NCBI GenBank assembly: GCA_964503895.1
Contig: CAZDCF010000005.1
Location: forward strand, 16,972-80,971
Source of the DNA: an uncultured Nitrospiraceae bacterium
Lineage (GTDB): Bacteria > Nitrospirota > Nitrospiria > Nitrospirales > UBA8639
Direction: 5' to 3'
Length of the DNA: 64,000 nt
Below are positions 1,862-14,995 of the stretch, piece by piece; the first letter of the stretch is position 1, and the number at the start of each line of letters is the position of its first letter. The notes below the pieces were generated by a model. It saw only the letters and a list, made by a program, of their open reading frames with translations, did not search any database and was not told the DNA's origin. The position numbers were made by a program, and so were the translations under genes.

Positions 1862-2305
1862 ATGCGATTTTTTCTGTATGCCGACAATCTTAACCCCACC
1901 CAATTAAAGCGGCGCGCACCAGAACACAAATTTTTATTTAAGGCCTATCTCGAAGATCACACAATTGGGCTATCTCGATTTTCCTCCCAATGGCGATGTG
2001 GCCTCGCGAACATTTTGCCCTCCCAGGGGGAACGGGTTTGGGGTGTAGTATTTGAGATTACTGACGAAGATCTAAAACTCCTGGATGCTTTTGATGGAGA
2101 GGTTCTAGAAGGCACATACCGCCACCTTGAAGTCAATGTCATGACGGAAAACGATCAAAAAGAATTAGTCACAACGCATGTTGCCCAAACCATTGGGAAA
2201 TTCAAAGCCAAAGACCATTATTTAGATTTCGTGGGTAAAGGGATCAAACATTGGGAACTACCAGATGAGTATCTTCAAATGTGGGAATTACTTCGTCCCC
2301 GTTAG
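1862..2305 (+). CDS. Gamma-glutamylcyclotransferase (AIG2-like) family protein
   Basis: FFLYADNLN, A-N-I-x-P, VWGVVFEI, LDxxDG...YR pattern; catalytic motif divergent. Confidence 0.7.
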   Translation: MRFFLYADNLNPTQLKRRAPEHKFLFKAYLEDHTIGLSRFSSQWRCGLANILPSQGERVWGVVFEITDEDLKLLDAFDGEVLEGTYRHLEVNVMTENDQKELVTTHVAQTIGKFKAKDHYLDFVGKGIKHWELPDEYLQMWELLRPR

Positions 2306-2416
2306 ACTGTCAAAAACATAGACTACGTCGAAATCACTCTCTTGACACCATGATGCCATCTTCCTTTTATAGGAACCAAACCACCGCTCAACAACCAACT
2401 AGCTTTCTCGAAAGGA

Positions 2417-2749
2417 GTGATCATGCCAAAACCCAAATATCATATTATGGTATGTACTAATACACGCCCACCAGGCCATCCAAAGCCGTCTTGCGGGTCT
2501 GAGGGATCACAAAACTTATTAATGGCCTTGAATATGGGATTAATGGAACGCGGCTTTCAGCCAGGCGAGGTCTTGGTGACCGGAAGTTCGTGCTTAGGTC
2601 CCTGTGAGCAGGGTCCCACGGTAGTCATCTATCCCGATGGCACTTGGTATTCACAAGTAAAAGATGAACACGTAGCATTAATTTTAGAAGAACATATCAA
2701 GAAGGGAACACCCGTCGCGCAGTTGAACCCCGATTCAGTCTGGAGCTAA
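2417..2749 (+). CDS. Thioredoxin-like [2Fe-2S] ferredoxin
   Basis: HIMVCTNxR..SC, CLGPCEQGPTVVIYPDGTWY; four Cys ligands. Confidence 0.9.
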   Translation: MIMPKPKYHIMVCTNTRPPGHPKPSCGSEGSQNLLMALNMGLMERGFQPGEVLVTGSSCLGPCEQGPTVVIYPDGTWYSQVKDEHVALILEEHIKKGTPVAQLNPDSVWS

Positions 2750-2776
2750 CCTCATACCACATCACCGCTTTTTATC

Positions 2777-3334
2777 ATGTCGAAACAACACGATTCTCAC
2801 TCCCATGGGCCAGGGCATCATCACGGCACCTCTTCCCCAGCAGAGCACAAAGCTCGAGGGCCCGCATCCATTCGTTGTGGAATCATCACCTGTAGTGATA
2901 CTCGAACACCAGAAACCGACAAAAGCGGACAATTGCTTAGAGAGTTATTGACCAAGGAGGGGCATCGAATTGACGCCTACCATATCGTCAAAGACGAGCC
3001 CGCAGACGTTCAAAAACTTATTCGCAATTTGGCCAAAGAACAAGCACTTGTAGCAATCATCATTAACGGCGGAACCGGCATTTCCCAGCGAGATTCAACT
3101 TTTGAAGCCATCGATGGATTGCTAGAAAAACGGCTGTTGGGGTTTGGAGAAATATTTCGTTATCTCTCCTACAAGGATATTGGCTCTCCCGCGATTCTTA
3201 GTCGAGCCACTGCTGGTTTGTATCAGGGGAAAGTGATATTTTCAATTCCTGGGTCCAGTGGAGCCGTTCGATTAGCCATGGAAGCCTTGATCATTCCTGA
3301 ACTGCCACACATTGTTGGGGAAATACAAAAATAA
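2777..3334 (+). CDS. moaB: Molybdenum cofactor biosynthesis protein MoaB/Mog family, His-rich N-terminus
   Basis: ITCSDTRT...DKSG, GGTGISQRDSTFEA, GFGEIFR, SRATAG, PGSSGAV. Confidence 0.88.
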   Translation: MSKQHDSHSHGPGHHHGTSSPAEHKARGPASIRCGIITCSDTRTPETDKSGQLLRELLTKEGHRIDAYHIVKDEPADVQKLIRNLAKEQALVAIIINGGTGISQRDSTFEAIDGLLEKRLLGFGEIFRYLSYKDIGSPAILSRATAGLYQGKVIFSIPGSSGAVRLAMEALIIPELPHIVGEIQK

Positions 3335-3359: not shown

Positions 3360-4406
3360 TCACACTTCATTCGTTTCAACAGTCAACACAATTTTACCAA
3401 AGTTTTTCCTATCAAGCATTCGCTCTTGCGCAACCCGCGCATCATCCAATGAATAGATGGAATCGATAATAGGGCGTAGTTTATTCGTTTCAACAAGTCT
3501 GACTGTTTCGACAAACTCGTCTCGCGTACCCATATAAGCCCCAATAATTGTAAGCTGGCGAGAATACAAATAGCGCACATCAAATGAGGCCATCCTACCC
3601 GAAGTAGCCCCACACGTGACTAAGCGTCCACCTTTCCCGAGCGATCGCAGGCAATCCCCCCACACCTTTTGCCCAATATGTTCAATCACGACATTCACAC
3701 CACAACCCTGAGTCAAAGCAGCTATTCGCTCGGCGACATTTTCCTCGGAATGATTCAAAACTTCATCCGCGCCTAACATTTTTGCCTTCTCTACTTTGTC
3801 TGCAACACCGACAGTAGTAATAACCCTGGCCCCTAACAAATTCGCCATTTGTATGGCCATACATCCAACACCACTCCCTGCCCCCATAACGAGGACAGTA
3901 TCACCTGGCTGAACATCCCCCAAGGCCTTCACCATATGCCACGCTGTAACAGAAACCAAAGGAAAGGCTGCCCCTTGCTCGAAGGTTAAGTTTTCGGGAA
4001 GGGGAAAGACGTTTATAGCCGGCACGTTCACATATTCCGCATAACCACCATTTCTTTGTGCACCCAAAAGCTGATAGTTCCGACACCGATTATCTTTTTC
4101 GGCTAAACATTCACCACAATTTCCACAACCCATGCCGGGCATCACGAAAACAGATTGGCCTGGTGTTAAATGCCCCGAATATGCAGCTCCTACTTTTTCA
4201 ATCACACCACTCAGGTCGCAACCAGAAATATGAGGAAGAGCAATCTTATAGCCAGGAATGCCCTGTCGAAGCCAAATGTCAAGATGATTAAGTGCGCAAG
4301 CTTTAACGCGAACCAAAATTTCCTCATGACCAACTTGCGGTATTGGAACCTCTTCATAGATCAACTTCTCAGTACCACCGTGCTCATGGAAGGTTACGGC
4401 TTTCAT
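3360..4406 (-). CDS. Medium-chain (zinc-binding ADH/quinone oxidoreductase-like) dehydrogenase
   Basis: MKAVTFHEHGG, structural Zn CxxCxxC-x7-C, GAGSGVG nucleotide motif; catalytic Zn motif replaced (ALNHLD, GCD). Confidence 0.88.
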   Translation of the reverse strand: MKAVTFHEHGGTEKLIYEEVPIPQVGHEEILVRVKACALNHLDIWLRQGIPGYKIALPHISGCDLSGVIEKVGAAYSGHLTPGQSVFVMPGMGCGNCGECLAEKDNRCRNYQLLGAQRNGGYAEYVNVPAINVFPLPENLTFEQGAAFPLVSVTAWHMVKALGDVQPGDTVLVMGAGSGVGCMAIQMANLLGARVITTVGVADKVEKAKMLGADEVLNHSEENVAERIAALTQGCGVNVVIEHIGQKVWGDCLRSLGKGGRLVTCGATSGRMASFDVRYLYSRQLTIIGAYMGTRDEFVETVRLVETNKLRPIIDSIYSLDDARVAQERMLDRKNFGKIVLTVETNEV

Positions 4407-4429
4407 ATCTCTGCCTTTCCCGAGTGAGG

Positions 4430-5362
4430 CTAGAACAGTAGCTTGCCCTCAGCTACCATCACCGCTTGTCCTCCTACTTTTACTTCTTGAATCTTATCAT
4501 CATCTGAAAAGACTTGAACGAGAATACGGGAGGGTCGATCAATTTCATACCCTTGTTCCATAATTATTTCCGTGGTAGGGCCTACATCAACTACCCCATT
4601 TTTCACCAAGTACGCACCGAGTGCCCCGCTAGCGCTTCCCGTAGCCGGATCTTCAATAATCCCAATGGGTGCAGCAAACATACGGGTATGAATATGAGCC
4701 CAATCTTCGACGGCAATAGTAGTAAACACCATCATTCCATTGACTCCCAGACGATCACAAACTGCCATCGTTCCAGTTAATTCTACTTTAATCGACTTCA
4801 CTGCTGTAAGTGTCCGAACCGGAACGATAACCACAGGCAGCCCCGTAGAAACAATTTCAATCGGTAAATGGGTATCCACTATATTAGACTTATTTAGCCC
4901 TAACGCTCGACTGATTTCATACAGGTCTTGAAGATTATCAACCATTCCCAGAAATTGCGGTTCGGATTGGGACATAATCACTTGTTCCACGGACCCGTGA
5001 AAAACGCCCAATTCCACGGGGAAAAGACCAATATTGCATTCAAAGATAAACCGGGTCACCGGATCTTGCAGTGGAAACCTATTCAATAGACTCAACACAA
5101 AAAACGTTCCAATAACAGGATGGCCAGCGAATGGAATTTCTTGCGTTGGTGTAAATATACGAAGTTTGACAATAGCCGCAGGATCGGTAGGGGGAACCAC
5201 AAATACAGTCTCGGAGAGGTTCATCTCTCTAGCAATTTGCTGAAACTCTCGATCAGTTAAACCTTGAGCATCAGGAACCACAGCAACAGGATTCCCACCA
5301 AAAGCTTCATCTGCAAACACATCGGCTTTATAAAATTGAATGCGTCGAGTAGGAGTCGCCAT
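4430..5362 (-). CDS. PhzF-family isomerase/epimerase
   Basis: DVFA...GNPVAV, MNLSETVF, RIFTP..EIPFAGHP, EDPATGSA motifs. Confidence 0.9.
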   Translation of the reverse strand: MATPTRRIQFYKADVFADEAFGGNPVAVVPDAQGLTDREFQQIAREMNLSETVFVVPPTDPAAIVKLRIFTPTQEIPFAGHPVIGTFFVLSLLNRFPLQDPVTRFIFECNIGLFPVELGVFHGSVEQVIMSQSEPQFLGMVDNLQDLYEISRALGLNKSNIVDTHLPIEIVSTGLPVVIVPVRTLTAVKSIKVELTGTMAVCDRLGVNGMMVFTTIAVEDWAHIHTRMFAAPIGIIEDPATGSASGALGAYLVKNGVVDVGPTTEIIMEQGYEIDRPSRILVQVFSDDDKIQEVKVGGQAVMVAEGKLLF

Positions 5363-5517
5363 ATTTACAGGTTAGAAAAAACGAATTTGAGTGAATAGTA
5401 TTGGGACATTCCAAAACCTTCACCAACTCTTGGGAATAAACAATTTAGACTTAGAAATGTTAGCAAAAACAATTAACTATCGTGAAAATTTAAGGAACAG
5501 GCTGGCAGTAAAACACG

Positions 5518-6756
5518 TTAGGCGCTTAAAGGCAAGGCTTCATAACTCGAGGCTGACGGATTTCGAACGTAATCCTCCACAAAATTTTTCAGATTTCCGT
5601 TTCTGTAAAGTCGTGTATTCGCAAACTTGGTATCGATCTTATGCAATACTTTGACCTTCACTCCAGTCTTTTTTATAAATTCTTCCAAGGTCACACCCAT
5701 AATATCCATGTAAGATCCACGCCCAGATTCCATGACACTTTTAGGAATATGAATTCGCTTTTCATTCGTCAAGCGTTGCCGAATATCGTCAAATGTAAGC
5801 AGAACGGTACAATCCGAGTCCCCTTGCAGCATAGCATTGGGTACGTACAGAAATCGCGCGCGCTTCTTTCGATACATATTCAGTATCTTATGCACGCTTC
5901 CTGCCATCACCACCGTGTCTTTCTTCTCCAATTCAAGCGAATCAAACATACTTACAATTCGCTTCCGATTCAGAAAAGCCGTGACATACGCCTCTGTATG
6001 AATCGTAGTTTCATTAGGAAGACCCGCATCATAAATTCGCTCCGCCTCCACCGGAAGATACTTCCTGCCTTGCCGCATGATTGTAGTAGTATCTTCTTTA
6101 AGACCTCGAACTGGGGTAAGACAGCCCATCCACAAGATACATTTTTGATTGATGCGCGAAATCATTTCCGCGTCTTTGGACATCGTATGTTCATCGAATG
6201 AATAAAAATTAGCAGAGTTGACAGCCGGCCCATCCAACACCTTCATAAGATGCCGCTCAGAAGGTGCATGAGGCATGAGTTTTTCACGGTATTTACTCAA
6301 AGTTATAACAGACAATTCGAAGTTAATACGCCCAGGATATTGCGCAACGAGTTGATGAATTTTGGGGACATGCACAAACCCCACGGTAAAAAACGTGACA
6401 TTCTTATCTGTATGCTTCAAAAAATCTTCAACCCATTCCATCGCTTTGGGATGAAGGAACAGGTCTGTCCATTCCATATATTCATTCCCACCCAAACACC
6501 AAAACTGCATGGGATTAGTTGGCTTAGAATTAATATAATTAAGAATAAACTCCCAATCATCCTGCGTGGTTTTTGGCGGATCAAGGGTTTCACGGTATGA
6601 ATGATCGAGTTCATAACAAAAATCACATTCGACAGGACATTTTTTCCCGAGACTCAATGGAATCTTTCCCGCATCCATCTCGCGCTTCAGCACTTCTCGA
6701 TAATCTTTACCTTGAAGAACTAACGTTGGTTCGAGAATCGGAAGATCACGTCCCAT
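5518..6756 (-). CDS. Radical SAM protein, DUF512-like C-terminus, no PDZ domain
   Basis: CPVECDFC (CxxxCxxC); C-terminal VPN...LLTFDDI...IPKSVM...D..GVTLEE resembles the DUF512 region. Confidence 0.7.
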   Translation of the reverse strand: MGRDLPILEPTLVLQGKDYREVLKREMDAGKIPLSLGKKCPVECDFCYELDHSYRETLDPPKTTQDDWEFILNYINSKPTNPMQFWCLGGNEYMEWTDLFLHPKAMEWVEDFLKHTDKNVTFFTVGFVHVPKIHQLVAQYPGRINFELSVITLSKYREKLMPHAPSERHLMKVLDGPAVNSANFYSFDEHTMSKDAEMISRINQKCILWMGCLTPVRGLKEDTTTIMRQGRKYLPVEAERIYDAGLPNETTIHTEAYVTAFLNRKRIVSMFDSLELEKKDTVVMAGSVHKILNMYRKKRARFLYVPNAMLQGDSDCTVLLTFDDIRQRLTNEKRIHIPKSVMESGRGSYMDIMGVTLEEFIKKTGVKVKVLHKIDTKFANTRLYRNGNLKNFVEDYVRNPSASSYEALPLSA

Positions 6757-6871
6757 AATTTTTAATTCTTTACCTCTTTCCTTGAAACTTTTAGCAATAG
6801 GCTCTTTGACAGATACTCAAACTTTCTGCAAAACTTTTACTCATCACGAAGATATTAAAACGGCATACTCC

Positions 6872-7165
6872 ATGAATTCACCAACTACGTCAAAAAAAAT
6901 TCCACAATCTCCACCTGATGAATCCATCAAAAAAGCACTAGAGCTGTTCAAACTTCCTTTACCTCTTGATTCGACAACCTTATATCAACGTTATCAAGAA
7001 CTGCTGATAACCTGGCATCCTCACCGGTATGCAAATATGACGAACAACCCCTCTAAATACATGCAAATGTATAAGAAGGGCGAGGCTACGACCAAGGAAG
7101 TCCGGGCAGCTTATAAAATGTTAAAAGAGTGGCTAGATAGAGGAAACACGCCTTCTATGGTCTGA
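6872..7165 (+). CDS. J-domain-like protein with HPH instead of HPD
   Basis: ORF track 6782..7165, ATG at 6872. ALELFKL...YQELLITWHPHRY...KEVRAAYKML matches J-domain helix layout. Confidence 0.65.
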   Translation: MNSPTTSKKIPQSPPDESIKKALELFKLPLPLDSTTLYQRYQELLITWHPHRYANMTNNPSKYMQMYKKGEATTKEVRAAYKMLKEWLDRGNTPSMV

Positions 7166-7181
7166 CTAATTTACTCATAAT

Positions 7182-9149
7182 TTACTTCGCAGAGTGGCTG
7201 ACCACTCTGGTCATCCCAGGCTCTCCGTCTTTCCCTCCTTCTGGATCGGCCTTGGCTACAGGCCAAGTAATCAAACCTGCAACAGTATCTGGTTTAGCTT
7301 CAGCAGGCACATGGTTGGTAGCATAAATTTGCGGCAACCGATTCGTGCCGAATTTAGAGATATAGAGAAAGATCTGTTCGCGTGCATTAATGCGGACCGC
7401 CCAAGGTTCAAAATCATTTTGATAAAACTCTTCGCACAATTGCATTGCATCAAGACAATTCACGCCACCTGGTTCATTGAGGGTATAGTAGTAATCCAAG
7501 GGCATATCATATTCTTCTTGTTTGTGAATCGTGATTCCAAACTTTTCTGGATTTCTCACCATTGGGGTATGCCGGTAGGCCACAAAGTAAAACAGCTCAA
7601 CAGAATGAATATTGGACTTGTTATTCAGTAAAAACTGTCTGGTATCTTCAGCTTCCTCACGAGTTTCTCCTGGAAATCCATAAAACGCCATCACATGATT
7701 CCAAATACCAACCCTAGCCGCTTCCTTTAAATTATTCTCGATAACGCTCTTTAGAGCGTGTTTATCCATACGTTCTAAAACCCGTTCATTGGCAGATTCC
7801 ATGCCATAATAGAGCGTCTTACAGCCTGATTTGGCTGCAAGATCCCATAGTTCGGGATCCTGAAGAGATTCTTCAAACCGAATCAAAGTTGTCCATTTGA
7901 TATCGACGTTTTCTTCAATTAACAATTGCGAGACCTTCTTAAAAAGCGCAGGAGGATAGGATTCATCCGCAAACAAAAAGTGGTCTGCGTGATACTTTTC
8001 CTTCAATGCATTAACTTCGCGAACCACATCATTCGCGGGCTTACCTCGATATTGATCAAAATACCCCTGTCCATGATCACAGAAGGTACATTTGCCCCAA
8101 TAACATCCTCGGGTCGCAAGATACGGAAGAATTCTAGTTGGCACGAAATAAGAGTCCAGCGGAAAGCCTTCAAAATCTGGCAAGGGGAGGCTCGTTGTTT
8201 TTTCTGTGTAAATTTCTGAATTTATTCGAACATGCCCTTGCTCTCGATACATCAAATTCGGCACTGATGTCCATTCACGATCACCCACTAACGCTTCAAG
8301 TAACCACAGCAATGCATGTTCACCCTCGTACATAATAGCCGAGTCAAAAATCTCAGTAAAAAACGGTTCTTGCTTGGCTAAATCCTCTTGCAACCTAGTG
8401 ATAACATTTCCCCCAACAGTGATATGAACATCCGGATACGCCTCTTTGATCATTTTTCCAAAGGTCAACCCCGCAATAAGCTGCATTTGCGTTCCAATGG
8501 AAATGCCCACAACTTCAGGCCGTTCTTTAGCCACCAAGGGCAGCACCAATTGTTGGCAGACATCACGGTAGACATTTACCTGTGGATCATTCAAACACGC
8601 ATATACTTCACTAGACACACCAGGACGATACCCGAGGTTGCTTTCCATCGGGTAATAAACAAGCGAAGCTGGATAATAGGCTGCCGAGATATAGCGCATG
8701 ACATCACGAAATATATTCAAAGCCCATTCAAGTTTGCTTGCATCATAAAAATCCTCGCTTCGATTAATACGCTTGGCTTCTTCCGCATTGGCAGCCAAGT
8801 CCATGACATCCAAGGATAGAACTTCCTCCAGACAGGCTTTTTGATTGACTTCCTTTTCTGTTAACTCTCGACTAGTTTCCGCGGCTTTCAACTCCCGAAG
8901 TTGTTGGGTCATCCGAGCATTCACCCAAATCAGAAACATATCGCTAAAGAACAGTTCGTACATTTCAATGTTGATATCTCGCTGAATAACCTCATGGCCA
9001 TTTTCACGAAGCACAGCGGTAAGACTGGGAAGCGCAAGGTAAGGAGCAGTGGGCACCCATTCCGGTGGAAAGAGCAGCATGGTCTTTAACTTACGACCAC
9101 TTTTTGGCTTTGAACTTTTTGTATCAATTTCTATAAAGGAAGAAGACAT
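7182..9149 (-). CDS. B12-binding domain radical SAM protein (class B methyltransferase-like), paralogue 2
   Basis: LLFPP..PYLALPSL, PEVVGISI...VGGN...EGE cobalamin-binding Rossmann segment, TRGCYWGKCTFC. Confidence 0.88.
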   Translation of the reverse strand: MSSSFIEIDTKSSKPKSGRKLKTMLLFPPEWVPTAPYLALPSLTAVLRENGHEVIQRDINIEMYELFFSDMFLIWVNARMTQQLRELKAAETSRELTEKEVNQKACLEEVLSLDVMDLAANAEEAKRINRSEDFYDASKLEWALNIFRDVMRYISAAYYPASLVYYPMESNLGYRPGVSSEVYACLNDPQVNVYRDVCQQLVLPLVAKERPEVVGISIGTQMQLIAGLTFGKMIKEAYPDVHITVGGNVITRLQEDLAKQEPFFTEIFDSAIMYEGEHALLWLLEALVGDREWTSVPNLMYREQGHVRINSEIYTEKTTSLPLPDFEGFPLDSYFVPTRILPYLATRGCYWGKCTFCDHGQGYFDQYRGKPANDVVREVNALKEKYHADHFLFADESYPPALFKKVSQLLIEENVDIKWTTLIRFEESLQDPELWDLAAKSGCKTLYYGMESANERVLERMDKHALKSVIENNLKEAARVGIWNHVMAFYGFPGETREEAEDTRQFLLNNKSNIHSVELFYFVAYRHTPMVRNPEKFGITIHKQEEYDMPLDYYYTLNEPGGVNCLDAMQLCEEFYQNDFEPWAVRINAREQIFLYISKFGTNRLPQIYATNHVPAEAKPDTVAGLITWPVAKADPEGGKDGEPGMTRVVSHSAK

Positions 9150-9154
9150 AGCAG

Positions 9155-11050
9155 CTAGACTTTCGCCAATTTTTCCGAGCTCTCCTCAGGAGAAATGCGG
9201 AACTGAAGAGCCGGGATTTTATTCGTTCCAAAGTGGGCAACATACATGAAAACATATTCGCGAATAAAAATTTTCAAATCCCAGCCTGGGTAATGACTTT
9301 GTTCGAACTCTTCGAAAACCCGTTCAGCATCTTCAACACCCAAGCCATCCTTCACTGTAAAATAATAATCCAGCGCCAAATCCCACTCTGGATTCTTGTA
9401 ATAGGTGACTCCCCATTTTTCCGCATTCTGCGCCACAGGCGTATGCTTGCTCAAGTCAAAAGTGCCGAATCCAATGGAATGTACATGTTCCTTGTTGTCT
9501 TCCAATACTTGCATGGATACTTTTGCGTCTTCGTATCGCTCACCAGGAAAACCGAAGAAACCCATGACATGATTCCATACTCCATGGGTGGATGAGAGTT
9601 CCATGCTTCGCTGAATTACATCAAGAGTAGTAGCCTTATCCATGAGTTTCAGTACACGCTCACTGCCAGACTCATAGCCGAAATGCAAAAATTTGCACCC
9701 TGAATCTTGAGCATCTTGCCACACCTCATCATCCAACAAACTTTTTTCGAAGCGAATGTGCGTGGTCCAAGCAATTCCCATCTTTTCCTCTTTTAAGGCA
9801 CGCGTGAGTTTCCGAAACAAGGCAGGGGGATAAGATTCGTCCGTGAAATGGAAGTGATAGGTACTATATTTGTCTCGAAGAAATTTCACTTCTTCAATGA
9901 TTTCTTGAATCTTCTTTGTTCGATATCCGGCTGTATAGCCTTCGCCATGATCACAAAACTCACATCGGCCCCAATAACATCCACGTGTAGCAAGATAAGG
10001 AAGTATTGGCTCGGGAACGAAATATTTTTCCATGGGCAAGCCGTCAAAATCTGGGGGTGGCAAATCCGACATACTTTCAGAAGAGGTCACGGGCGAAACA
10101 TGAATACCCAAATCATCACGCCACAACAAATTAGGAATTTCATTGAAATCCTGATCCGTGCCAACAGCTTCAACTAATTGCAAAAATGCAGTCTCCCCTT
10201 CATACACTACAGCACTATCAAAATGCTCGAACAGCTTTGGCGTTTCCGGTAACACATCACGCAACCGGGTCACGGTATTACCGCCAATGGTCACATGGAT
10301 GTTGGGAAATTGTTCCTTAATCATGGCACAAAAAGTCATGGTCGAAAATAATTGCTGACGCAAAACGATGGAAATACCAATAATCTCAGGCCGCTCTGCA
10401 ACAATGGCTGGCTTTAGAATATGTTCAAATACATCTCTATAGATATTGACTTGAGTATCATCCACAGCCTGTAATATTTCTGAAGACATAAAAATTTTAT
10501 AGGAAAGATCCGTCTCCATGGGTGGCATACAAATACGAGCTGGCGCATATACCAAAGAAATTGTGGATGTCACTTCTCGAAAGATATTGATAGCCCATTC
10601 GAGTTTATCAACGTCATAAAAGTCTGGCGTCCGAACAATTTCCTTGGCACGTTCGGCTTTTTCTGTTAAATCAACCATTTTCGATCGCGTACATTCACAT
10701 AATGCTATTTGAAGTTCGCTCTCTTCATCAGAAAGTCCACGATCCCGGCCAAGCTTTTTTAAACGGTCGAGCTGTTGAGGAACACGTTTTACTACGCGCT
10801 TGAGAAAATCAGCGCTAAAGTACCAATCATACATTTCAAGGTTGACATCCTTTTGAACCACCTCATGCCCAGCTTGACGAAGAAAGGCCGTTAAAGTGGG
10901 AAGGCTAAGATATGGCTCTGAGGGATACCAATCAGGGGGAAAAACCAACATGACCTTTTTCTTGGGTCCGCTATCAGCCTGAGATTCTTTTCGACGCAGT
11001 TGTACCTGCTGAGGACTGATCAGCCCGCCTTTGTTATAATCAATCCTCAT
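9155..11050 (-). CDS. B12-binding domain radical SAM protein (class B methyltransferase-like), paralogue 1
   Basis: LVFPP..PYLSLPTL, PEIIGISI...IGGN...EGE, TRGCYWGRCEFC; 5 nt from paralogue 2. Confidence 0.88.
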   Translation of the reverse strand: MRIDYNKGGLISPQQVQLRRKESQADSGPKKKVMLVFPPDWYPSEPYLSLPTLTAFLRQAGHEVVQKDVNLEMYDWYFSADFLKRVVKRVPQQLDRLKKLGRDRGLSDEESELQIALCECTRSKMVDLTEKAERAKEIVRTPDFYDVDKLEWAINIFREVTSTISLVYAPARICMPPMETDLSYKIFMSSEILQAVDDTQVNIYRDVFEHILKPAIVAERPEIIGISIVLRQQLFSTMTFCAMIKEQFPNIHVTIGGNTVTRLRDVLPETPKLFEHFDSAVVYEGETAFLQLVEAVGTDQDFNEIPNLLWRDDLGIHVSPVTSSESMSDLPPPDFDGLPMEKYFVPEPILPYLATRGCYWGRCEFCDHGEGYTAGYRTKKIQEIIEEVKFLRDKYSTYHFHFTDESYPPALFRKLTRALKEEKMGIAWTTHIRFEKSLLDDEVWQDAQDSGCKFLHFGYESGSERVLKLMDKATTLDVIQRSMELSSTHGVWNHVMGFFGFPGERYEDAKVSMQVLEDNKEHVHSIGFGTFDLSKHTPVAQNAEKWGVTYYKNPEWDLALDYYFTVKDGLGVEDAERVFEEFEQSHYPGWDLKIFIREYVFMYVAHFGTNKIPALQFRISPEESSEKLAKV

Positions 11051-11157
11051 AACAATCCTGCACCAAAGAAAAGGTTTACAGAAAGAAAATACATGACTTA
11101 CTCACCCGCCGTTAAAACCCCCCTTGAAATCTAAAAAGATTGAGGGCGCCCTACAGC

Positions 11158-11187
11158 ATTCTATGACGCCGGAAAAAGGCTGGTCAA
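11158..11187 (-). promoter_or_regulatory. sigma70-type promoter for the B12 radical SAM pair
   Basis: TTGACC-18nt-TAGAAT about 110 nt upstream of 11050. Confidence 0.55.
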
Positions 11188-11314
11188 GGATGCTAACAGC
11201 CTGAAAAATAAAGGGTTACTAAATTGACAGGCCATTAAGTCGTGAGTATCGACTCTATGTTCCAAGAAACTACCGAAATCTCAATGGCTTTGAGTTCCTA
11301 AACCACTCTCACCC

Positions 11315-14300
11315 CTACAATAAATTCGGAGAAAGCCAGCGCTCGATTTCGGAAACTTCCATCTGCTTCCGAACAGCATAACTTTTGACTTGTTCTTGAT
11401 CAATTTTTCCAACCGCAAAGTATTTGGCTTGGGGGGAAGCAAAGTAAAGGCCGCTAACCGAAGCAGCAGGGAACATAGCAAAGGTTTCGGTAAGATGAAT
11501 GCCTATAGACTTTTCAGCATCCAGCAAATCAAATAAGATGCGTTTCTCTGAATGATCGGGACAGGCAGGATAACCAGGCGCTGGACGAATGCCTCGATAC
11601 CGTTCATTAATTAAATCCTCATTCGAGAATGTTTGATTTTTTCCATACCCCCACTCTTTACGCACTTCTCGGTGCAACCACTCGGCAAATGCTTCAGCTA
11701 ACCGATCTGCAAGAGCCTTAACCATGATAGAATTATAATCATCATGGTCTTTTTCAAATCGTTGGCAGAGCACTTCAATGCCAATGCCAGCAGTAACGGC
11801 AAATCCCCCAAGATAATCGGCTAGCCCTGATGATTTCGGCGCAATAAAGTCAGCTAACGCGTAATTCGAATCACCTTTCGGCTTTTCTAATTGCTGTCGA
11901 AGAGTATGAAAAACTGTGAGGACTTCTGAGCGCGATTGATCTTTATAGACCTCAATATCATCTTCCACACTATTAGCGGAGAACAATCCATAGACGGCCT
12001 TGGCGGACAACAACTTTTTATCGATGATTTCCTGAAGTAATCTTTGGGCATCATCAAATAATTCCTTGGCTTTGCTCCCAACTAAAGAATCTTCAAAAAT
12101 CTTGGGATAACGGCCCTTTAGTTCCCAGGTATGGAAAAATGGCGACCAGTCGATTACAGGAACTAAATCTTCTAATGACTGATTCTCGATCACTCGAGTT
12201 CCAAGAAAACTGGGCCTAGCAATATCCGAGGCTTGCCAATCGATTGGAATTCGACGCTTGCGGGCCTCATCCAATGGCAACAATTTTTTCATAGTCTTCT
12301 TGCTTTCGTAGGCTTCCCGCGATTGTTGTTGTTGTTGCCGAACTTTTTTGACGAACTCTGGCTTTTGTTCATTGTTCAACAATTGGCGAACCACATTCAC
12401 GGCTAACGACGCATCCAACACATGGATCACGGGGTCTTGGTAACCTGGGGCAATCTTCACTGCCGTATGTACCTTGCTGGTGGTTGCCCCTCCTATGAGC
12501 AACGGAATATCAAACCCTTCACGAGCCATTTCCTTAGCGTTATGAACCATTTCATCCAAAGACGGCGTAATCAGGCCACTCAAGCCAATCATATCGACTT
12601 TTTCTTCTTTGGCTTTTTCCAAGATTTTATCGCAGGGAACCATCACTCCAAGATCGATAATTTCGTAGTTATTGCAGCCCAGCACCACACCTACAATATT
12701 TTTTCCGATGTCATGAACATCGCCCTTGACTGTTGCAAGCAGCACTTTGCCTTGCGCCCCAGTTCGAGATACTTCTTTCTCTTTATCCATAAATGGCAAT
12801 AGATAGGCCACCGCCTTTTTCATAACGCGCGCACTTTTAACCACTTGGGGCAAAAACATTTTCCCCGCGCCAAACAAACCACCTACTATATTCATGCCAT
12901 CCATTAAAGGCCCTTCAATAACTTGAATCGGCTTATCGTACTTTTGCCGTGCTTCTTCTGTATCTTCATCAATATACTCAACAATTCCTTTGACCAACGC
13001 ATGGGAAAGACGCTCTTCGATTGTTCCTTTTCGCCAAATATCATCTTTGACTGCAGCCTTTCCTTGTTGCTTAACGGTTTCGGCAAAAGCAACTAGGCGT
13101 TCGGTTGCATCTGGCCGCCGATTCAAAAGAACATCTTCTACTAGCTCAAGCAGATCCTTGGGAATTTCTTCGTACACGCCCAGTTGCCCTGCATTGACAA
13201 TAGCCATATCCAAACCAGCCTTGATAGCGTGAAACAAAAACGCCGCATGCATAGCTTCACGCACCGCGTTATTACCACGGAATGAAAACGAAATATTGCT
13301 GACCCCACCACTGACCTTGCAATAAGGCAATGTTGCTTTGATCTGGCGCGTGGCTTCAAGGAAGTTAACAGCGTAGTTGTTGTGTTCCTCAATCCCTGTT
13401 GCCACAGTCAGAATATTAGGGTCAAAAATAATATCCTCAGGAGAAAACTTAAGCTGTTCAGTCAGGATCTCATACGCACGTGCACAAATCTCAACTTTCC
13501 GTTCAGTGGTATCCGCCTGCCCGACCTCATCAAACGCCATGACTACAACGGCAGCGCCATACCGTTTAATCAAGTTGGCCTGGTCTTTAAACTTCCCTTC
13601 GCCCTCTTTAAGACTAATGGAATTCACAACACCTTTGCCCTGAACGCATTGCAGCCCCGCCTCGATAACTGACCACTTCGAACTGTCGATCATAATAGGC
13701 ACGCGACAGATATCTGGCTCAGAGGCAATAAGATTCAAGAAATGCACCATGGCCTCTTCCGAATCCAACATACCTTCATCCATATTGATGTCGATAATCT
13801 GGGCACCACCCTCTACCTGCTGCCGCGCCACAGACAGAGCTTCTTCAAACTGACCATCCAGAATCAATTTGGCGAATTTTGGAGAACCAGTCACATTAGT
13901 CCGTTCTCCGATATTCACGAAATTTAGTTCTGGGGTTATGACTAACGATTCTAACCCACTCAATCGTGTCACATGCCCAGATTGGACCACTTCGTGGGGC
14001 TTCAGATCACTTACAGCTTGGGCTATGGCAGCAATATGCTCCGGGGTGCTTCCACAACACCCACCTACAATATTTAACCAACCATTGCTGGCAAAATCGC
14101 GCAAATCCTTACCCATGCGTTCTGGAGTTTCATCAAAACCGCCAAACGCATTAGGAAGGCCAGCATTGGGATAACAACTAATGTAAGTGGGCGCGATTTT
14201 CGACAACTCTTCGATATAGGGACGCATTTGTTTAGCGCCTAGTGCACAATTGATCCCCACGCTAAACGGGTGTACATCTGCAATCGAATTCCAAAATGCT

Positions 14301-14995
14301 TCGATTGTTTGCCCCGACAAAGTTCGTCCACTTTGGTCGGTAATTGTGACGGAGGCCATTACTGGGATTTCTACACCATATTCCTGACAGTATTGATTAA
14401 TTGCAAAGAAGGCCGCTTTGGAATTAAGGGTGTCGAAAATTGTTTCCACCAAAAAAAGATCGACCCCACCATCCACCAGACCTCGGACTTGCTCATAATA
14501 AGCTTTGCGCAGCTGTTCGAAGTTAACCGCTCGAAAAGCAGGGCTATTCACATCCGGAGACATGCAAGCCGTGCGATTGGTTGGCCCAATGGCTCCCGCC
14601 ACAAATCTTGCTTGTGAAGGATTCTTACTCATTACAATCTCAACAGCTTTTCGTGCTGCTTTTGCTCCAGCCACATTCAGGTCATAGGCCAAATGCTCCA
14701 TCTTATAATCAGCCATTGAAATAGTATTGGAGTTAAAGGTATTCGTCTCGATAATGTCCGCGCCTGCCTCCAAATATTGCTGATGAATCGAAACAATTAG
14801 GTCCGGCTGAGTAATAGCCAACAAATCATTATTCCCTTTGACATCACAGGAATGGTTGGCAAACTGGATGCCACGAAAATCAGATTCCTCCAATTTATGG
14901 AGCTGAATCATGGTGCCCATGGCACCGTCCAACACCACAATTCTCTGTTTTATAAGCGATTTTAGTTCTTGAAGCCGACCAGTTGAATTTTTCAC
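11315..14995 (-). CDS. metH: Cobalamin-dependent methionine synthase
   Basis: [38 protein letters not shown]12 motif, [12 protein letters not shown]; 1226 aa. Confidence 0.99.

Follow-up and report, generated by a model that had tools for sequence, protein, structure and literature searches.

Cobalamin-type radical SAM enzymes in a conserved gene neighbourhood of Nitrospirales and their possible link to the nitrite oxidoreductase system

The chemistry of radical S-adenosylmethionine (SAM) enzymes that depend on cobalamin is set out in one account (PMC12846815) as a sequence in which cob(I)alamin is methylated by one SAM, cleavage of another SAM at the [4Fe-4S] cluster yields a 5'-deoxyadenosyl radical, by which hydrogen is abstracted from the substrate, and methylcobalamin then gives its methyl group to the substrate radical. 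The described systems closest to the locus treated here are OxsB of oxetanocin A biosynthesis (PDB 5UL2-5UL4), which contracts the deoxyadenosine ring together with its HD-domain partner OxsA and belongs to a plasmid-borne antibiotic cluster; two archaeal methanogen enzymes acting on methyl-coenzyme M reductase (MCR), the glutamine C-methyltransferase MgmA/QCMT (PDB 9CCB) and the arginine C-methyltransferase Mmp10 (PDB 7QBS); the DUF512 proteins (PDB 9CG1, 9CG2), DUF512 being an experimentally proven cobalamin-binding domain (PMC11659888); and, as a gene arrangement, the nxrC accessory cluster of Nitrospira moscoviensis (NITMOv2_3617-3625), in which nxrC_2 (NITMOv2_3624), the most highly expressed nxrC, adjoins a TorD-like chaperone gene (PMC6606698). 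In the present study, a stretch of 64,000 nucleotides from an uncultured Nitrospiraceae bacterium (contig CAZDCF010000005.1, positions 16,972 to 80,971; hereafter the window) was compared with these systems. The genes in question are metH, two cobalamin-type radical SAM genes (B12b and B12a, together "the pair"), a small J-domain-like gene (J-like), the gene of a cryptic 412-residue radical SAM protein (X412), and the genes of a PhzF-family protein and an oxidoreductase of the medium-chain dehydrogenase/reductase (MDR) type. The original prediction had taken the three radical SAM genes, the isomerase and the reductase beside metH as one candidate pathway of methylation, isomerisation and reduction. 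According to the reading preferred here, to which we assign a probability of roughly 55%, the stretch is a conserved neighbourhood of at least four units and not one pathway, and the likeliest target of the pair is a component of the nitrite oxidoreductase (NXR) system.

The pair and J-like are the only part of this neighbourhood that is inherited and lost together. Their features in the window are as follows.

9155..11050, minus strand: B12b, a 631-residue cobalamin-type radical SAM enzyme, with the Pfam domains B12-binding and Radical_SAM above cut-off
9953-9979, minus strand: cluster loop of B12b, motif CYWGRCEFC (CX4CX2C)
7182..9149, minus strand: B12a, a 655-residue cobalamin-type radical SAM enzyme, with the Pfam domains B12-binding and Radical_SAM above cut-off
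8079-8105, minus strand: cluster loop of B12a, motif CYWGKCTFC, with the F-A-D-E "GGE" motif of the protein at residue 393
6872..7165, plus strand: J-like, a small protein of about 97 residues from the ATG at 6872, its reading frame being open from a TTG at 6782

The window proteins were mapped onto 15 + 9 loci of relatives, and the families are designated here as f1 (the window's own), f2 (the one with complete ammonia-oxidising, or comammox, Nitrospira) and f3 (a third family). The order B12b-B12a-J-like was kept in every f1, f2 and f3 locus long enough to show it, with J-like always adjoining B12a and with B12b orthologues 66-88% identical, and the arrangement is conserved in Nitrospirota. 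The pair was present in 23/24 (f1), 6/6 (f2) and 5/5 (f3) cases, and in 0/5 of a fourth group, f4. At the same time, three f2 genomes were detected without an intact pair, and J-like could not be found in any of them. The complete, single-contig comammox genome G061 (locus L141, G061:C1:2823400-2843300) has lost B12a, B12b and J-like; the comammox genome G092 (L142, G092:C2:133000-152900) retains B12b and an 80-residue B12a remnant corresponding to about the first 80 residues, with no J-like; and in G028 all of B12a, B12b, J-like and X412 are absent.

The connection with NXR comes from a third paralogue, B12c, which is located on another contig of the same genome, has 591 residues with the loop CYYKDCAFC (CX4CX2C), and is 33-34% identical to B12a and B12b. 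It lies directly after nxrC and a TorD/NarJ-like chaperone gene, both in its own genome and in 16/16 relatives from f1, f2 and f3.

G000:C9:40000-50075 (L032) and L038:2001-18518: nxrC accessory cluster with B12c, order identical in 16 relatives

Upstream of B12c, this cluster encodes a sigma-54 regulator, a WD40 protein, a conserved unknown protein, a 4Fe-4S ferredoxin, the NarJ/TorD-like chaperone and a 317-residue EB_dh haem protein (NxrC); in the relatives, B12c is followed by an unknown gene and by genes for TPR, TatA and NHL proteins, a second EB_dh protein, a PDZ protein and multihaem cytochromes. B12c is a fixed member of the accessory cluster described for N. moscoviensis. Its counterpart there, NITMOv2_3622, stands beside nxrC_2, with nxrC_2 and the TorD-like chaperone gene on one side of it and the second nxrC on the other. 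The radical SAM gene is not mentioned in the main text of the paper on that cluster, from which the word "radical" is absent (PMC6606698). B12a and B12b are located elsewhere in the genome, outside the nxrC cluster. In the expression data for N. moscoviensis (PMC6606698), NITMOv2_3622, NITMOv2_1729 and NITMOv2_1730 reach 286-376 reads per kilobase per million (RPKM), all above the median; NITMOv2_1729, of B12a size (1953 nt), is at about 364 RPKM, and the convergent NITMOv2_1730 (258 nt), corresponding to J-like, at about 286 RPKM.

The distribution of the family follows that of NXR. Among 201 Nitrospirota genomes, members of this B12 radical SAM family were found in 14/14 of f1 and 35/35 of f2, and about 150 genomes of other families gave only two weak matches (29-30% identity); in this phylum sample, the B12 trio is also kept in 15/17 AmoA-positive genomes. 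A search of genome contigs with the alignment of B12a, B12b and B12c produced more than 599 matches, and the 80 loci among the matches listed were all from Nitrospirales. The NxrC-like haem subunit covers the same range as the pair (f1 44/47, f2 47/47, f3 20/21, f4 0/5), and within the phylum the family is essentially confined to the NXR-bearing families. The three f1 genomes counted without NxrC were considered as a natural experiment and rejected, since nxrC proved to be merely broken at contig ends. It is because B12c is fixed after nxrC and the chaperone gene, and because the family is limited to NXR-bearing lineages, that NXR is proposed as the target.

B12a and B12b are paralogues with 46% identity, each with an N-terminal Rossmann-type cobalamin-binding domain and with scores of 64 and 55.7 bits against PF04055 (cut-off 29.5). 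Their cluster loop is of the CX4CX2C and not the CX3CX2C type, with cysteines invariant in 23 sequences, and the "GGE" position is occupied by F-A-D-E in B12a and F-T-D-E in B12b; each protein is predicted to bind a [4Fe-4S] cluster, SAM and cobalamin. The predicted structure of B12a is confident (predicted local distance difference test, pLDDT, 83; predicted template modelling score, pTM, 0.85), and Foldseek ranked TsrM, MgmA and OxsB together as its matches, with MgmA as the sole match in a sequence search of the PDB. B12a is closest in fold and motifs to OxsB, the example of a CX4CX2C loop known so far, which likewise has an Ala-Asp-Glu version of the "GGE" motif (PMC9204698). OxsB is not a methylase, and methylation by B12a and B12b is therefore not assured. 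The two proteins also differ: B12a carries a helical insertion of about 100 residues within the Rossmann domain, OxsB has an N-terminal extra domain instead, and their sequence similarity is below phmmer detection. No HD-domain partner was present among the neighbour genes scanned with Pfam, and none was noticed in the syntenic loci, where only homologues of the window proteins were mapped; the nucleoside-antibiotic setting of OxsB is likewise lacking. The homologues of B12a are all from Nitrospirales/Nitrospira, and its neighbours in the ESM Atlas are from Planctomycetota, Nitrospirota and Nitrospinota.

None of the NCBIfam equivalogs is approached by B12a or B12b, which agrees with the earlier description of the pair as uncharacterised cobalamin-type radical SAM enzymes. 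The best model for B12a, the PhpK family TIGR04479, gave 152 and 115 bits with the pair against a cut-off of 600, and the best for B12b, the PoyC-like model TIGR03975 for C-methyltransferases of ribosomally synthesised and post-translationally modified peptides (RiPPs), gave 115 and 124 bits against 281.85; ApyD was also among the best matches. The comparison families that had been named beforehand fared no better: HpnR, BchE (62-73 bits, cut-off 481) and the PoyC-type model are all far below their cut-offs. In the comparison with the MCR C-methyltransferases, the window proteins remained at 54-69 bits with the equivalog TIGR04014 (cut-off 360). No phosphonate or RiPP genes, and no precursor of the NHLP/Nif11 type, were found nearby, J-like being the one small gene present.

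These scores bear on the idea that B12a and B12b modify a membrane lipid, be it a hopanoid, a branched fatty acid or one that spans the membrane, in the way of HpnP/HpnR or the ladderane-associated enzymes. Weak matches to HpnJ (64-70 bits), HpnR (46-51 bits) and the "lipid biosynthesis B12-binding/radical SAM" model TIGR04072 (62-66 bits) would fit it, as would the housekeeping-level conservation and constitutive expression of the genes and the methyl-branched fatty acids that are a signature of Nitrospira. All three scores are nevertheless far below the respective cut-offs of 578, 650 and 360, no lipid biosynthesis gene occurs in any syntenic locus, and the paralogue B12c belongs to an nxrC cluster and not to a lipid cluster, so that a lipid substrate is considered highly unlikely.

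Tailoring of a cofactor, namely the lower ligand of a cobamide (in a BzaD/BzaE-like manner), NXR's molybdopterin or the haem in NxrC, has to be weighed against another set of genes, the conserved flank of the block.

1862..3334, plus strand: flank of AIG2-like, thioredoxin-like 2Fe-2S ferredoxin and MoCF_biosynth (MogA/MoaB-like) genes, assigned by Pfam

A MoCF_biosynth gene and a 2Fe-2S ferredoxin gene in such a flank would suit a cofactor substrate, and so would the position of B12c next to the genes of the haem-b subunit and of a chaperone inserting the molybdenum cofactor, the weak BzaD matches (66-75 bits) and the activity of OxsB, the nearest fold, on a nucleotide and not a protein. The BzaD scores are far from the 450-bit cut-off, however, deletion of the pair has left the flank in place, and the pair has no further gene of a cofactor pathway linked to it, which leaves this explanation rather unlikely. 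As a separate observation, the AIG2-ferredoxin-MoCF flank may be linked to the supply of molybdenum cofactor for NXR.

In the preferred reading, with NXR as the target, B12a and B12b would each produce a 5'-deoxyadenosyl radical that takes hydrogen from an unactivated carbon, after which cobalamin would either deliver a methyl group or assist a rearrangement. The substrate would be a cytoplasmic precursor of the periplasmic NXR system, a subunit or a cofactor, modified before export. The enzymes represent a variant, specific to this lineage, of cobalamin radical SAM classes already known, and a link to NXR maturation is plausible. In the global nitrogen cycle, as in wastewater treatment, nitrite oxidation of the Nitrospira type is a key step, and the assembly of periplasmic NXR is poorly known; a confined B12 radical SAM family with one member fixed in an nxrC/chaperone cluster and expressed during nitrite-oxidising growth is a candidate for a maturation step, which, if real, would tie nitrification to the supply of vitamin B12. 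The natural pair-less comammox genomes could serve as ready-made controls.

The J-like gene was expected to encode a small J-domain protein interrupting the block, and a J-domain-like gene is indeed found there on the plus strand, with a weak HscB match (E 6e-5) and the UniRef name "J domain-containing protein"; its HPD motif is not conserved, being HPH in the window and HPA, HPS, NPA, NPT, YPP or DPA in orthologues. The homologues are all from Nitrospirales/Nitrospira, one of them from Candidatus Nitronereus thalassa, and a core, WHPxRYAxLTNNPxKYMxMYKKGEAxTKEI, is conserved in 17 loci. J-like may act as an adaptor that holds the substrate of the enzymes or, less likely, may be the substrate itself. 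The latter version, a RiPP-like or protein-modification cassette in which both B12a and B12b act on J-like, draws on the constant association of J-like with the pair and its loss together with it, on the unusually invariant 30-residue core, on the presence of TIGR03975 and ApyD among the best NCBIfam matches and on the fact that MgmA, the nearest PDB sequence relative of B12a, methylates a protein. It is quite improbable all the same, given that TIGR03975 is matched with 115-124 bits against a cut-off of 282, that no leader/core organisation, protease or exporter is present, that the protein resembles a folded helical domain of J type and that its gene is transcribed convergently and not with the enzymes. 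The ORF map likewise contains no RiPP precursor and no nonribosomal peptide synthetase or polyketide synthase gene, as had been stated before.

The third radical SAM protein of the block is of a different type.

5518..6756, minus strand: X412, a 412-residue cryptic radical SAM protein, with CPVECDFC at 6616-6639 (residues 40-47)

X412 matches nothing in Pfam or NCBIfam, and a profile search against PDB sequences was also negative; the cysteines C40, C44 and C47 (CxxxCxxC) are invariant in 23 homologues, and a homologue with 62% identity, P0245, passes Pfam Radical_SAM (PF04055) with 31.7 bits against 29.5. The X412 model, of moderate pLDDT (66), has a radical SAM fold of the partial TIM-barrel kind, with radical SAM enzymes as the top fold matches. 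Foldseek alone returned weak generic radical SAM matches, and the closest similarity, to Mmp10 and DUF512 proteins, was seen only with an exhaustive structural aligner; the ESM Atlas neighbours agree with this assignment. X412 differs from the DUF512 proteins (PMC11659888) by having no PDZ domain, the Pfam DUF512 model reaches at best 12.5 bits (in an X412 homologue; cut-off 25), and no Mmp10 sequence model was matched. X412 may accordingly be described as a probable cobalamin-type radical SAM enzyme of Mmp10/DUF512 architecture, on the strength of a model that is only moderately confident. The family is very narrow, with homologues all from Nitrospirales/Nitrospira and one other full-length cluster among 1.84 billion representatives, and X412 would bring into the small Mmp10/DUF512 class, in which one function is known, a member that is bacterial and specific to a lineage. 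A distant X412-like protein, P0304 (L035:7047-8180), with 21% identity (E 8e-7), comes from a phage-like contig, where its gene is flanked by that of a beta-helix protein and by small unknown genes, with capsid genes near by, and gave no functional clue; a mostly viral cluster was also noted near X412 in the ESM Atlas.

X412 is present in 46/47 (f1), 24/47 (f2), 19/21 (f3) and 0/5 (f4) genomes. In the 23/47 f2 genomes without it NxrC is kept, and so is the pair in most of those checked. Intact X412 was found in none of the 21 AmoA-positive (comammox) f2 genomes as against 23 of the 26 AmoA-negative ones, and this difference holds inside two genera. In one AmoA-positive genome, a remnant of X412 with two stop codons was noticed (G123:C1:1381728-1382018). 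Cyanase (PF02560) was tried as a gene sharing the X412 profile and rejected, with 29/47 in f1 and 5/21 in f3 compared to 46/47 and 19/21 for X412. The phyletic pattern of X412, lost in comammox Nitrospira, is separate from that of the pair and indicates a separate role. A more specific scheme would have the periplasmic NXR of Nitrospira-type nitrite oxidisers carry radical-SAM modifications on a subunit or cofactor in the manner of MCR, introduced by B12c and by B12a/B12b with J-like presenting the substrate, and would make X412 an Mmp10-type modifier of a target that is dispensable in comammox organisms; it is possible but doubtful.

The remaining genes of the block and its promoter-like site are the following.

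11315..14995, minus strand: metH, cobalamin-dependent methionine synthase (NF007024, 2106 bits against a cut-off of 1497; five Pfam domains)
11158..11187, minus strand: promoter-like site of sigma-70 type upstream of B12b, TTGACC-18-TAGAAT, a 10/12 consensus match only
4430..5362, minus strand: PhzF-family isomerase-like protein (TIGR00654, 246 bits against 76.2; Pfam PhzC-PhzF)
3360..4406, minus strand: MDR (zinc-alcohol-dehydrogenase-like) oxidoreductase, with ADH_N and ADH_zinc_N domains, reaching no equivalog cut-off

The ORF map and the Pfam/NCBIfam scans confirmed the seven genes in the places given to them originally. The metH product has the complete domain set (S-methyl_trans, Pterin_bind, B12-binding_2, B12-binding and Met_synt_B12 in Pfam). 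The PhzF protein is not a member of the YddE-type equivalog NF007625 (208 bits, cut-off 386), and no phenazine genes are near its gene. In G028, the PhzF homologue is in two pieces (residues 5-133 and 172-310; G028:C16:41843-42648), which suggests a frameshift or decay.

The view that these genes form one pathway, in which three radical SAM enzymes, PhzF and MDR would methylate, isomerise and reduce a small molecule while MetH regenerates methionine, has some points in its favour. Apart from J-like, the genes share one orientation with little space between them; the order B12b-B12a-J-X412-PhzF holds in the whole of f1 and in part of f2; and dependence on cobalamin is probable for MetH as well as for each of the three radical SAM enzymes. 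When relatives are compared, the block nevertheless comes apart. Across f1, and in a single f2 genome, X412 has J-like on one side and PhzF on the other; four other f2 loci are without X412, and in two f3 genomes it is on another contig, away from the pair and directly downstream of proC. PhzF adjoins X412 or J-like in f1 and f2 but not in f3, MDR occurs in only some of the syntenic loci, and metH is within about 5 kb of the pair in 7/12 f1 loci and in none of the f2 and f3 loci examined. With X412 unlinked in f3 and lost from 23/47 f2 genomes, most of which, where checked, keep the pair, with G061 retaining MDR-PhzF and the AIG2-ferredoxin-MoCF flank after loss of the pair, and with MDR and metH as variable neighbours, a single pathway is very unlikely; X412, MDR and metH are scattered in related genomes, B12b-B12a-J-like are not. 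The proC gene (pyrroline-5-carboxylate reductase) and X412 of f3 are at L020:6600-8712 and L021:9361-11735.

The spacing of the genes is in line with this dissection. metH and B12b are 264 bp apart, B12b and B12a 5 bp, X412 and PhzF 155 bp, and PhzF and MDR, the latter being the downstream gene, 23 bp; J-like is separated by 16 bp from B12a (convergent stops) and by 115 bp from X412 (divergent starts). The block falls into several transcription units, being broken by the 264- and 155-bp gaps and by the gene that runs convergently, a possibility that the original prediction had itself allowed. The promoter it had placed at 11158-11187 does exist as a 10/12 match, but such sites are no commoner in the region than in shuffled sequence (20 found, 23.9 expected) and are thus not enriched. 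No sigma-54 promoter was found upstream of B12b or X412, and no cobalamin or SAM riboswitch in the window. The neighbourhood would therefore consist of metH, which is a housekeeping gene and a variable neighbour of the pair, as the first unit; the B12b-B12a operon with the convergent J-like gene, both enzymes being OxsB-like with an Ala/Thr-Asp-Glu version of the "GGE" motif, as the second; X412, with its separate role, as the third; and PhzF-MDR, without a demonstrable link to the others, as the fourth. Added by the present analysis are the dissection from metH to MDR, J-like as a partner that is lost along with the pair, the probable assignment of X412 to the Mmp10/DUF512 type, the loss of X412 in comammox Nitrospira and the pair-less genomes.

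Several points weigh against NXR as the target and against the grouping proposed. The link to NXR is based on a paralogue of 33-34% identity and on a distribution equal to a single clade; the absence from f4 may be one evolutionary event, and the correlation with NXR is consequently confounded with phylogeny. Three NXR-bearing genomes lack B12a/B12b, so nitrite oxidation does not require the pair. A distance of about 300 bp separates B12c from nxrC, and B12c may be transcribed from a promoter of its own. Within a single bacterial order, genes can also stay in a conserved arrangement with no functional coupling: the AIG2-ferredoxin-MoCF flank is syntenic in f1 and f2 and as conserved as the pair, which shows that an arrangement can be retained here although no coupling is obvious. 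One deletion spanning adjacent genes could account for the loss of J-like together with the pair, and the model of X412 is only moderately confident (pLDDT 66). A literature search on radical SAM enzymes combined with NXR, nxrC or Nitrospira gave nothing relevant, and no publication dealing with the pair came to light. To our knowledge, neither C-methylation nor any other radical modification of NXR has been reported.

As for the host and its habitat, four marine metatranscriptomes hold contigs in which X412, J-like, B12a and B12b are covered. Taken together, the Nitrospirales homologues and the marine RNA runs that hold the stretch point to a marine nitrite oxidiser as the host. The depth of these data is unusable for ranking the genes, because the runs were chosen with this stretch and most contigs are from relatives of 95-99% identity, so that less conserved genes drop out. 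One metatranscriptome contig, at 7102-7490, crosses the 16-bp gap between J-like and B12a, which may reflect overlapping transcripts or DNA carry-over.

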